Shown here in pieces: positions 20,650-21,473 of a DNA stretch of 64,000 nucleotides. Within the stretch, counting starts at the first letter, position 1. Every line of letters begins with the position of its first letter. The DNA comes from a virus: IMG/VR virus record IMGVR_UViG_3300012943_000031, positions 32,001 to 96,000 of that record, one strand, 5' to 3'. The notes under the pieces were generated by a model. That model was given only the letters and a program-made list of their open reading frames with translations, was not told the DNA's origin and made no database searches. Made by a program: the position numbers and the translations under genes.

Positions 20650-20681
20650 TTTGGAAATCGTGAAAAAAGGTTGTATATTTG
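20650..20681 (+). promoter_or_regulatory. Bacteroidota sigma promoter P3 (tRNA operon 3)
   Basis: TTTG 20650 and TATATTTG 20674. Confidence 0.85.
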
Positions 20682-20685
20682 CAGT

Positions 20686-20733
20686 ATGAAAATAACATCA
20701 ACATATAGTTCCTTGTCGTTACTCTATAGCTAA
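20686..20733 (+). CDS. Attenuator leader peptide 3 (MKITSTYSSLSLLYS)
   Basis: 10 of the last 11 codons are Ser/Leu/Tyr, matching downstream Leu, Leu, Ser, Ser, Tyr tRNAs. Confidence 0.85.
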   Translation: MKITSTYSSLSLLYS

Positions 20734-20787
20734 TAGAGCCGGGAATACTATGTGTCAAAAATAACTATCTTGATTTTACATAACATG

Positions 20788-20814
20788 ACCCGGTATTTCT
20801 ATACTGGGTTTTTT
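20788..20814 (+). terminator. Attenuator terminator 3
   Basis: ACCCGGTAT-ttct-ATACTGGGT-TTTTT before tRNA-Leu. Confidence 0.88.
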
Positions 20815-20821
20815 GTTTTAT

Positions 20822-20895
20822 GGCATTGTGATGGAACTGGGATACATACCTGTCTTAGAAACAGTTTTTTGTGGGTTCGAATCCCACCTTTGCCA
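20822..20895 (+). tRNA. trnL: tRNA-Leu(UAG), short variable loop
   Basis: CTGT-CTTAGAA-ACAG; canonical T arm; two acceptor mismatches. Confidence 0.75.
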
Positions 20896-20898
20896 CAT

Positions 20899-20977
20899 GC
20901 TCCTATGGTGGAACGGTATACACGTCAGACTTAAAATCTGATCTTAATTGATGAGAGTTCGAATCTCTCTAGGAGCA
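20899..20977 (+). tRNA. trnL: tRNA-Leu(UAA)
   Basis: TCAGA-CTTAAAA-TCTGA; GCTCCTA/TAGGAGC. Confidence 0.9.
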
Positions 20978-20978
20978 C

Positions 20979-21204
20979 AACAACCATAAACTATCGAGTT
21001 ACAACTTGCTGGGTACTTACTGGGTACTTGCGGGGTGTAATTAGGAAACTCAGCACATCTCTGCTTAAAATGGGAGGACTAGCAATCCGTTATTACCAAA
21101 GAGGATGAAACTCAAACAGACTAAGAAGGTGAGCAGTTCTATGAAGTCGGGTTAGAGGATTAGACAAATGATAGTTGATACAGAAAGCTGGTTATTGGGT
21201 TGTT
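20979..21204 (+). ncRNA. rnpB: Compact RNase P RNA
   Basis: P1 AACAACC/GGTTGTT, P2 AACTATC/GATAGTT, P3 TTACA../..TGTAA, CR-I-like AGGAAACTCAGC pairing with ACAGAAAGCTGGTTA (P4 with bulged U), AGACAAATG before the P2 3' strand. Confidence 0.8.
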
Positions 21205-21209
21205 AAATT

Positions 21210-21299
21210 GGTGGGCCCCAGATGACAGAGGTACTCCGTCTTGAAAACGGCTATAACGGTAATCATTCCGTTGTAAGGGTTGGACTCCCTTGCCCACCT
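21210..21299 (+). tRNA. trnS: tRNA-Ser(UGA), atypical
   Basis: GGTGGGC/GCCCACC; CCGT-CTTGAAA-ACGG; long variable arm; odd D arm and TTGGACT T loop. Confidence 0.75.
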
Positions 21300-21306
21300 C
21301 AAATAA

Positions 21307-21396
21307 GGAGAATAGACGAATATTGGTTTGTCGTAACTACCTGCTAAGTAGTTCTGTGTAACAGCAGTAAGAGTTCAATTCTCTTATTCTCCGCCA
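21307..21396 (+). tRNA. trnS: tRNA-Ser(GCU)
   Basis: ACTAC-CTGCTAA-GTAGT; long variable arm; G73 CCA. Confidence 0.88.
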
Positions 21397-21400
21397 ATAT

Positions 21401-21473
21401 GGGATAGACAGCAGGGCACTGTAGACGGTCTGTAAAACCGAACTATGTAGAGTTTCGAATACTCCCTATCCCA
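21401..21473 (+). tRNA. trnY: tRNA-Tyr(GUA), atypical D arm
   Basis: CGGT-CTGTAAA-ACCG; GGGATAG/CTATCCC. Confidence 0.78.

Follow-up and report, generated by a model that had tools for sequence, protein, structure and literature searches.

The DNA analyzed here is a 64,000-nucleotide (nt) stretch of a 106.8-kb IMG/VR virus record (IMGVR_UViG_3300012943_000031, positions 32,001 to 96,000), called the window below and used for all coordinates unless another contig is named. Between positions 16048 and 21474, the window carries 26 ARAGORN-called tRNA genes on the plus strand, plus a few noncanonical ones. The last block of this array is an operon of leucine, serine, and tyrosine tRNA genes interrupted by an RNase P RNA homolog. 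Directly ahead of it lies a leader region that a first-pass annotation had read as an attenuator sensing Ser, Leu, and Tyr tRNAs, a reading that bears on how and why phages carry and control such tRNA genes. The nearest cultured relatives of the virus are Cellulophaga phages, with 24 to 27% protein identity, and DNA searches of cultured phages, for near as well as distant matches, returned tRNA-level similarity only.

A leader ORF between a promoter and a terminator

A promoter, a short leader open reading frame (ORF), a terminator, and the first tRNA gene follow one another within 175 nt, with no further promoter among them. The promoter is of the type used in Bacteroidota (Table 1), and the window contains 10 occurrences of its pattern, TTTG-N17-23-TAnnTTTG, compared to 3.05 expected. 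Four copies, starting at 15853, 16980, 19892, and 20650, are nearly identical; three of them are followed by a leader and a tRNA cluster, and the remaining copy lies directly before a suppressor tRNA. The leader ATG is only 4 nt past the -7 box, a spacing that recurs without change in the leaders of six other phage contigs (L001, L006, L008, L011, L016, and L042), and because of this short distance the leader mRNA is probably leaderless.

Ser is encoded in the ORF by five different codons and Leu by three, TAT occurs twice, and the last nine codons form an uninterrupted Tyr/Ser/Leu core. This core comprises the full amino acid set of the operon and no other amino acid, a composition with a p value of 3.9e-4 when compared to 7,718 other short ORFs. 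Runs of at least nine Ser/Leu/Tyr codons are rare, with two found when all six frames of the window, approximately 128,000 codon positions, were counted. The tRNAs called by ARAGORN in the operon can decode 7 of the 9 core codons, and all 9 are decodable if the noncanonical tRNA-Ser(UGA) is counted.

An intrinsic terminator (20787 to 20819) ends 2 nt upstream of tRNA-Leu(UAG). In an independent scan, 20787 to 20810 with the T tail was terminator-like and had 10 pairs, where 3.8 such sites are expected in shuffles of the whole region. Thus, a translatable short ORF, its translation being predicted, stands between a promoter and an intrinsic terminator, as in leader-peptide attenuators. None of the Rfam leader families (Trp, His, Leu, Thr, and Phe leaders) matched within 20650 to 20821 at an E value of ≤10; the sole Phe_leader match (17 bits, E value of 8) was located off the leader, at 21458 to 21538.

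Three mutually exclusive helices

The leader RNA can form three helices, referred to as 1:2, 2:3, and 3:4 after the regions that pair (Table 1). According to the first-pass annotation, CCGGG (20739 to 20743) could pair with CCCGG (20789 to 20793) of the terminator, aided by TATGT (20749 to 20753) and ACATA (20778 to 20782). All of these motifs, along with the ORF and its codons, are where it placed them, and the proposed pairing is the minimum-free-energy fold of 20734 to 20799 (-15.1 kcal/mol, z score of -2.7). This 2:3 antiterminator uses positions 20789 to 20794 of the terminator 5' arm, which are common to both structures, and therefore excludes the 3:4 terminator hairpin (-13.5 kcal/mol, z score of -5.0). 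As an isolated duplex, region 2 paired with the terminator 5' arm has an energy of -12.7 kcal/mol (p = 0.015 versus shuffles).

An element absent from the first-pass annotation, the 1:2 helix, completes the design. In the minimum-free-energy fold of the full leader, 20701 to 20709, within the Thr-Tyr-Ser codons, pairs with 20747 to 20755, so that the leader folds as a 1:2 domain (-16.9 kcal/mol, z score of -3.2) followed by the terminator. The 5' strand of this anti-antiterminator therefore lies inside the regulatory codons. Each of the three helices is 2.7 to 5 standard deviations below shuffled sequences, and their mutual exclusion is that of a trp-type attenuator. Region 2 also begins so close to the stop codon that, given the size of a ribosome footprint, it is within reach of a terminating ribosome, as had been proposed for CCGGG.

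Table 1. Coordinates of the Leu/Ser/Tyr leader region and of the operon that follows it
Feature	Position	Strand	Description
Bacteroidota-type promoter	20650-20681	+	-33 element TTTG at 20650-20653 (in TTTGGAA); -7 box TAnnTTTG at 20674-20681
Leader ORF	20686-20733	+	15 codons; ATG at 20686; stop TAA at 20733, then TAG
Region 1	20701-20712	+	5' strand of 1:2 helix; inside regulatory codons
Regulatory core	20704-20730	+	TAT AGT TCC TTG TCG TTA CTC TAT AGC; nine straight Tyr/Ser/Leu codons
Region 2	20738-20755	+	Antiterminator 5' strand; pairs with region 1 or region 3; starts 5 nt past stop codon
Region 3	20778-20796	+	ACATA plus terminator 5' arm (20787-20796)
Region 4 and T tract	20801-20819	+	Terminator 3' arm at 20801-20810
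tRNA-Leu(UAG)	20822-20896	+	ARAGORN; Rfam 50.1 bits
tRNA-Leu(UAA)	20899-20978	+	ARAGORN; Rfam 63.8 bits
Mini RNase P RNA homolog	20979-21204	+	226 nt; between tRNA-Leu(UAA) and tRNA-Ser(UGA); RF00373 match
tRNA-Ser(UGA)-like	21210-21289	+	Noncanonical; ARAGORN at 85% of threshold only, in register 21207-21298
tRNA-Ser(GCU)	21307-21396	+	ARAGORN; Rfam 41.9 bits
tRNA-Tyr(GUA)	21401-21474	+	Noncanonical; ARAGORN at 95% of threshold only
Operon-closing terminator	21511-21540	+	Terminator scan call at 21511-21532; 9 pairs plus T tail

Similar leaders in related phages

The first-pass annotation had named the lack of a conserved leader upstream of Leu/Ser/Tyr clusters in relatives as evidence against an attenuator. 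Similar leaders were found in four of them (L001, L060, L154, and L234). L001 (59% identity) and L060 were reached via a neighboring 433-amino-acid protein, for which IMG/VR yielded three relatives and metagenomes eleven; of these, L001 and L060 alone retain the Leu/Ser/Tyr cluster with its upstream region. L154 and L234 were reached via a 15-nt leader word that gave more than 117 matches, mostly due to chance, of which two were real. A search with a 20-nt tRNA-Tyr pattern recovered L001 alone.

In all four relatives, the leader core is a run of 8 to 12 Ser/Tyr/Leu codons immediately followed by a terminator and a Leu/Ser/Tyr tRNA cluster, so clustered regulatory codons are conserved as a feature of the element. 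The terminators themselves are unrelated in sequence. Near the end of the ORF, L001, L060, and L234 each carry a 7- to 8-bp complement of their own terminator 5' arm (p ≤ 0.01), and the antiterminator pair, which is GCCGGG with CCCGGU in the window, is altered on both strands in these three phages. L001 has the same three helices as the window, with similar energies, and in each of the five Ser/Leu/Tyr leaders, if region 3 is removed, region 2 folds back onto Tyr-Ser codons of the core. Helices were compared by folding each sequence separately; a MAFFT alignment of the five leaders was out of helix register, and column covariation was dropped.

Leader codons track operon content

If the leaders sense the tRNAs that they precede, leader and operon content should agree beyond this one operon. 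The window contains two sibling attenuators, at 15853 to 16047 and 16980 to 17180, with antiterminator p values of 0.005 and 0.000, respectively. The 15-codon core of the first leader (15889 to 15978) consists of exactly His, Arg, Thr, Trp, Phe, Cys, Pro, and Gln codons and precedes nine tRNAs for those amino acids. In the second leader (17039 to 17113), the 13-codon core specifies ten amino acids, those carried by the 13 tRNAs encoded at 17181 to 19339. Together, the three leaders of the window cover all 20 amino acids and split them exactly as the three operons do.

Leader and operon content agree in the window and in seven other phage contigs, including the cultured Cellulophaga phage phi38:1 (L063, NC_021796). 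Operons were merged across the RNase P insert, where splitting at 150-nt gaps would break the Leu/Ser/Tyr operon. Matching leaders precede the three L001 operons and operons in the unrelated contigs L006, L008, L011, and L042, as well as in phi38:1. Leader codons shift with the grouping of the tRNAs. For example, Leu codons occur in the leader of a Pro/Glu/Gln/His/Arg operon where Leu tRNAs are located there (L008, L042, and phi38:1), and Ser and Tyr codons occur in the leader of an Asn/Phe operon (with Trp in L042) that holds Ser and Tyr tRNAs (L042 and phi38:1). L050 and L053 retain only tRNA-Cys, and the L050 leader contains five Cys codons and no Trp, Phe, His, or Arg codon.

Amino acid sets of leader and operon coincide in 16 of 20 clusters. 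When the 20 leader-operon pairs were re-paired at random, the observed score of 82.0 (compared to 33.3 ± 6.3) was reached in none of 20,000 permutations. Of 17 matching leaders, drawn from 11 contigs, 14 had a significant antiterminator (p ≤ 0.033), and each of the 17 has a region 2 that is predicted to fold back onto core codons. The three leader-terminator-tRNA units of phi38:1, at about 1719 to 1796, 3181 to 3258, and 4412 to 4501, all have leaders that match their operons. In the phi38:1 annotation, the longer hypothetical proteins gp066 and gp070 overlap two of these leaders, and gp067, which lies over the third leader on the opposite strand, is probably a miscall.

Isoacceptors or amino acids

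Codon choice within the leaders bears on whether they monitor tRNA species or amino acids. With four-way wobble by tRNAs having U at position 34 (U34) allowed, the tRNAs of the operon behind each leader can read 154 of the 164 core codons, compared to 14 of 164 for other tRNAs of the same locus. In 8 of 8 cases, the Arg codons of a leader are those read by the Arg isoacceptor that its operon encodes: CGN codons occur with tRNA-Arg(ACG), and AGA occurs with tRNA-Arg(UCU). Because this split tracks the isoacceptor, it favors tRNA species rather than amino acids as what is sensed. The first-pass annotation had suggested isoacceptor monitoring from the variety of synonymous codons in the Ser/Leu/Tyr leader. 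That suggestion gains support from the sibling leaders; the mixture of TCN with AGY and of CTN with TTR codons in the Ser/Leu/Tyr leader is weak evidence by itself. The circuit as a whole probably resolves individual isoacceptors.

A mini RNase P RNA homolog within the operon

The 226-nt gene between tRNA-Leu(UAA) and tRNA-Ser(UGA) matches the archaeal RNase P model RF00373 over its entire length (model positions 1 to 288; 28.1 bits, E value of 1.2e-6 in a local search). When the whole phage genome was searched, it was the only match, at 36.1 bits and an E value of 4e-10, a score that is below the RF00373 gathering score of 84 and still significant by its E value. The bacterial type A (RF00010) and type T (RF02357) models gave no match at an E value of ≤10.

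Present in this RNA are P1, P2, a long P3, P4 with its bulged U, and the conserved nucleotides of J3/4, CR-IV, and CR-V, including AGGAAA, a CR-IV box ending in AAUGA, and ACAGAA; in P4, AAC(U)CAGC pairs with GCUGGUU. The catalytic domain is thus retained, and the specificity domain (CR-II, CR-III, and P7 to P12) is reduced from approximately 117 model positions to approximately 36 nt. Across ten phage homologs, which were picked and delimited partly by complementarity, all 120 cells of P2 and P4 are paired and 8 of the 12 pairs show compensatory changes; none of 500 shuffles reached these values. As judged from these sequence features, 20979 to 21204 is a real RNase P RNA homolog, with cleavage activity predicted.

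The RNase P RNA gene abuts the preceding tRNA and lies approximately 5 nt before the next one, and a search for a promoter or terminator of its own found none. The simplest reading is that it would be cotranscribed under the attenuator, as the first-pass annotation had suggested in proposing that the leader also gates this RNA; at the level of sequence, the homology and the tight spacing bear that proposal out. The RNA would then be a phage-encoded ribozyme overlooked by standard annotation.

Genes of 184 to 282 nt with the same CR-IV and CR-V pattern are found inside tRNA arrays of many IMG/VR contigs. Mini versions occur in L073, L076, L093, L095, L106, L107, L112, L113, L117, L118, and L119, with the L076 copy closest to that of the window, and near-full-size versions occur in L077, L104, and L108. 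Seven of the mini contigs were scanned; all scored below Rfam gathering thresholds, and three had significant subthreshold RNase P matches. L001, L060, and phi38:1 are without a mini RNase P RNA.

The downstream tRNA genes and other features of the array

Five tRNAs were listed downstream of the leader in the first-pass annotation. Leu(UAG), Leu(UAA), and Ser(GCU) are called by both ARAGORN and Rfam, while Ser(UGA) and Tyr(GUA) are noncanonical, recovered only below the ARAGORN threshold, and not reported by the Rfam tRNA model. By our own reading, Ser(UGA) has a perfect 7-bp acceptor stem (21210 to 21216 with 21282 to 21288) and a CUUGAAA anticodon loop, and ARAGORN calls this tRNA in the equivalent clusters of L052, L060, L154, and L234. 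The L001 homolog of Tyr(GUA) (8667 to 8738) is called at the default threshold.

Several further features of these arrays were observed. A tRNA-like gene of approximately 160 nt (17615 to 17776) has a clear acceptor stem and T arm with a long internal insertion, and is called by neither ARAGORN nor Rfam. An amber suppressor tRNA with a CUA anticodon (19935 to 20007) is preceded by a separate copy of the strong promoter (region 19892 to 20500), and codon 4 of the ORF after it is an in-frame TAG, with a second ATG (20036) immediately following. Right after the Leu/Ser/Tyr operon terminator, L001 (8890 to 9090) and L060 (5045 to 5240) share a conserved noncoding element of approximately 190 nt with no Rfam match, to which the equivalent region of the window (21541 to 21790) aligns weakly. 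L060 also has one tRNA with an insertion (3798 to 3896) and, between Ser(UGA) and Ser(GCU), a 112-codon ORF with a tRNA fragment (4290 to 4720), which may represent mobile insertion in the array.

A proposed self-limiting attenuator and its alternatives

The favored explanation, to which we assign a probability of roughly 0.78, is that the element is a transcription attenuator of the ribosome-mediated leader-peptide kind and that the tRNAs under its control are those it senses. Sequence analysis provides the basis for this reading in the form of the ORF and its composition, three helices, a terminator, conservation and covariation in relatives, and the content of the operon; the attenuator proposed by the first-pass annotation is thereby upheld, with the similar leaders of four relatives added to its evidence. 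In the proposed mechanism, host RNA polymerase would start at the Bacteroidota-type promoter, and a ribosome would load on the 5'-terminal AUG. When charged Tyr, Ser, and Leu tRNAs are plentiful, the ribosome would reach the TAA and cover the GCCGGG of region 2, 5 nt downstream, leaving region 3 to pair with region 4 and transcription to end 2 nt before the first tRNA. When one of these tRNAs is scarce, a ribosome stalled on the core would mask region 1, allowing the 2:3 antiterminator to form and transcription to read through into the tRNA genes. If no ribosome loads, 1:2 and 3:4 would both form and transcription would terminate. Because the products are the tRNAs being tested, such a circuit would be self-limiting, providing negative-feedback control over the supply of the phage tRNA pool with a resolution of one operon. 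The phage would then probably make its Leu/Ser/Tyr tRNAs and mini RNase P ribozyme only when ribosomes run short of these tRNAs.

A number of points weigh against this explanation. The window antiterminator is the weakest among the significant ones of the Ser/Leu/Tyr leaders (p = 0.015), consists of 6 pairs plus 5 with internal loops between them, and lies after the stop codon, whereas those of relatives lie inside the ORF; that of L154 does not reach significance (p = 0.29). Stalling at the final two or three codons of the core would place the ribosome over region 2, which leaves only about six codons able to signal. Of the five tRNAs downstream, two are noncanonical, and TCC and CTC are readable only if U34 tRNAs wobble four ways. 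Searches with a DNA word or pattern derived from the leader yielded three of the four relatives, and nucleotide conservation among the relatives is therefore partly an ascertainment effect. Four tRNA clusters in other phage types (L014, L033, L044, and L046) have no matching leader, L044 and L046 having the same candidate ORF; because of these clusters, the leader-attenuator design is, as far as these sequences go, common rather than universal. Lastly, we infer the transcription start, leaderless translation of 15 codons, stalling, and regulated readthrough, along with whatever depletes the tRNAs.

An attenuator of the same construction could respond to amino acid starvation, with charging as the signal and the tRNA match reflecting merely amino acid identity. 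A stalled ribosome cannot distinguish a missing tRNA from an uncharged one, the classical trp, his, leu, and thr leaders work in this way, and by our own estimate the codon diversity of the Ser/Leu/Tyr leader is near random synonymous choice. Such a circuit, however, would have no useful output, as extra tRNA gives no relief from starvation. It would also have to accommodate the division of Arg codon boxes between sibling leaders in step with the division of isoacceptors between operons, which is seen within one phage both in the window and in L001, and the small number of core codons readable by tRNAs of other operons. We consider sensing of starvation unlikely for these reasons.

Two further alternatives dispense with the ribosome as sensor. 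The hairpin could be a constitutive leaky terminator or a processing or stability element, with the ORF untranslated or encoding an unrelated peptide. The clusters without matching leaders fit this possibility, strong hairpins before tRNA genes could act as 5' processing signals, and leader translation and regulated readthrough are predictions only. It is still decidedly improbable, since it leaves unexplained the coincidence of leader and operon amino acid sets that no permutation equaled, the complementarity of region 2 to terminator arms of unrelated sequence, and the constant pairing of region 2 into core codons. The leader RNA could also bind a tRNA directly, in the manner of a T-box, or bind a small molecule, making the ORF incidental. 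T-box leaders do link tRNA status to a choice between terminator and antiterminator. Against this stand the 100-nt length of a leader without specifier-loop or T-box architecture, the absence of any match to a T-box (RF00230), including its specifier loop and antiterminator bulge, or to a riboswitch family within 20600 to 21800 at an E value of ≤10, and an AUG at the predicted transcript start followed in frame by a series of cognate codons, the arrangement that a sensor read by a ribosome would need. Direct sensing is therefore highly improbable.

More tentatively, the ribosome-read attenuators may serve a wider purpose. The three of them could form an isoacceptor-resolved monitor of the host tRNA pool, in which loss of host tRNAs, for example, by anticodon nuclease defenses or phage-induced host shutoff, would switch on only the operon holding the replacements; the Leu/Ser/Tyr operon would also supply the mini RNase P ribozyme to process the new precursors. 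We regard this extension as possible, though more doubtful than not. If it is true, phage tRNA arrays would be inducible counterdefense and supply modules rather than constitutive helpers of codon usage.

Relation to known systems

A ribosome-read sensor of this kind would turn the classic logic of attenuation on itself, with a codon test by the ribosome deciding whether the matching tRNAs are made, and would extend leader-peptide attenuation to noncoding RNA genes and to Bacteroidota phages. It would also offer a direct genetic readout of tRNA availability inside infected cells. The design points to phage tRNA arrays being inducible, a property that bears on host defenses based on tRNA cleavage, and the three leaders in the cultured phage phi38:1 make the idea directly testable. 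A full-text literature search returned no account of leader-peptide control of tRNA genes and none of phage mini RNase P RNAs.

The RNase P RNA of the window resembles type T of Pyrobaculum (RF02357) in being almost without a specificity domain, and it shares P1 to P4, the P4 bulged U, J3/4, and the CR-IV and CR-V nucleotides with type T and with bacterial type A RNA (RF00010). It differs from both in being phage encoded, in its position between tRNA genes with predicted cotranscription, and in matching only the archaeal model RF00373, below the gathering score.

T-box riboswitches likewise use tRNA status to select a terminator or an antiterminator upstream of translation-related genes. Unlike the proposed attenuator, they read uncharged tRNA by direct RNA-RNA contact without a ribosome, and their targets are genes for aminoacyl-tRNA synthetases, amino acid biosynthesis, and transport rather than tRNA genes. 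The nearest published case is the trn operon of Anabaena sp. PCC 7120, a silent long tRNA array that is induced under translational stress (PMC8421152). The 2021 paper does not mention a leader peptide, attenuation, or a terminator (PMC8421152), and the title and abstract of the 2023 follow-up assign control to a protein repressor, TrcR (PMC10272220). The Anabaena operon is an accessory one kept off until translation is impaired, as is predicted for the phage operon; it differs from that of the window in being bacterial rather than phage borne and in its reported reliance on the TrcR repressor.

In architecture, the element is closest to the attenuators of enterobacteria, with which it shares the short ORF between promoter and intrinsic terminator found in ilvGMEDA, thr, and trp and the multi-amino-acid codon cluster of ilvGMEDA and thr. 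The trp attenuator is the structural archetype, and the ilvGMEDA (Ile/Val/Leu) and thr (Thr/Ile) leaders are multivalent. As in trp-type attenuators, the 1:2, 2:3, and 3:4 helices are exclusive, region 1 falls within the regulatory codons, and region 2 is next to the stop codon. Unlike the enterobacterial elements, the window element is phage borne in a Bacteroidota-type setting, with an mRNA that is probably leaderless and no sequence relation to the Rfam leader families, and its sibling leaders list up to ten amino acids. The enterobacterial attenuators control amino acid biosynthesis or related protein-coding genes, whereas the output here is five tRNAs and an RNase P RNA, so that the molecules sensed would be the products themselves. 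This noncoding output is the feature that sets the element apart from known leader-peptide attenuators.

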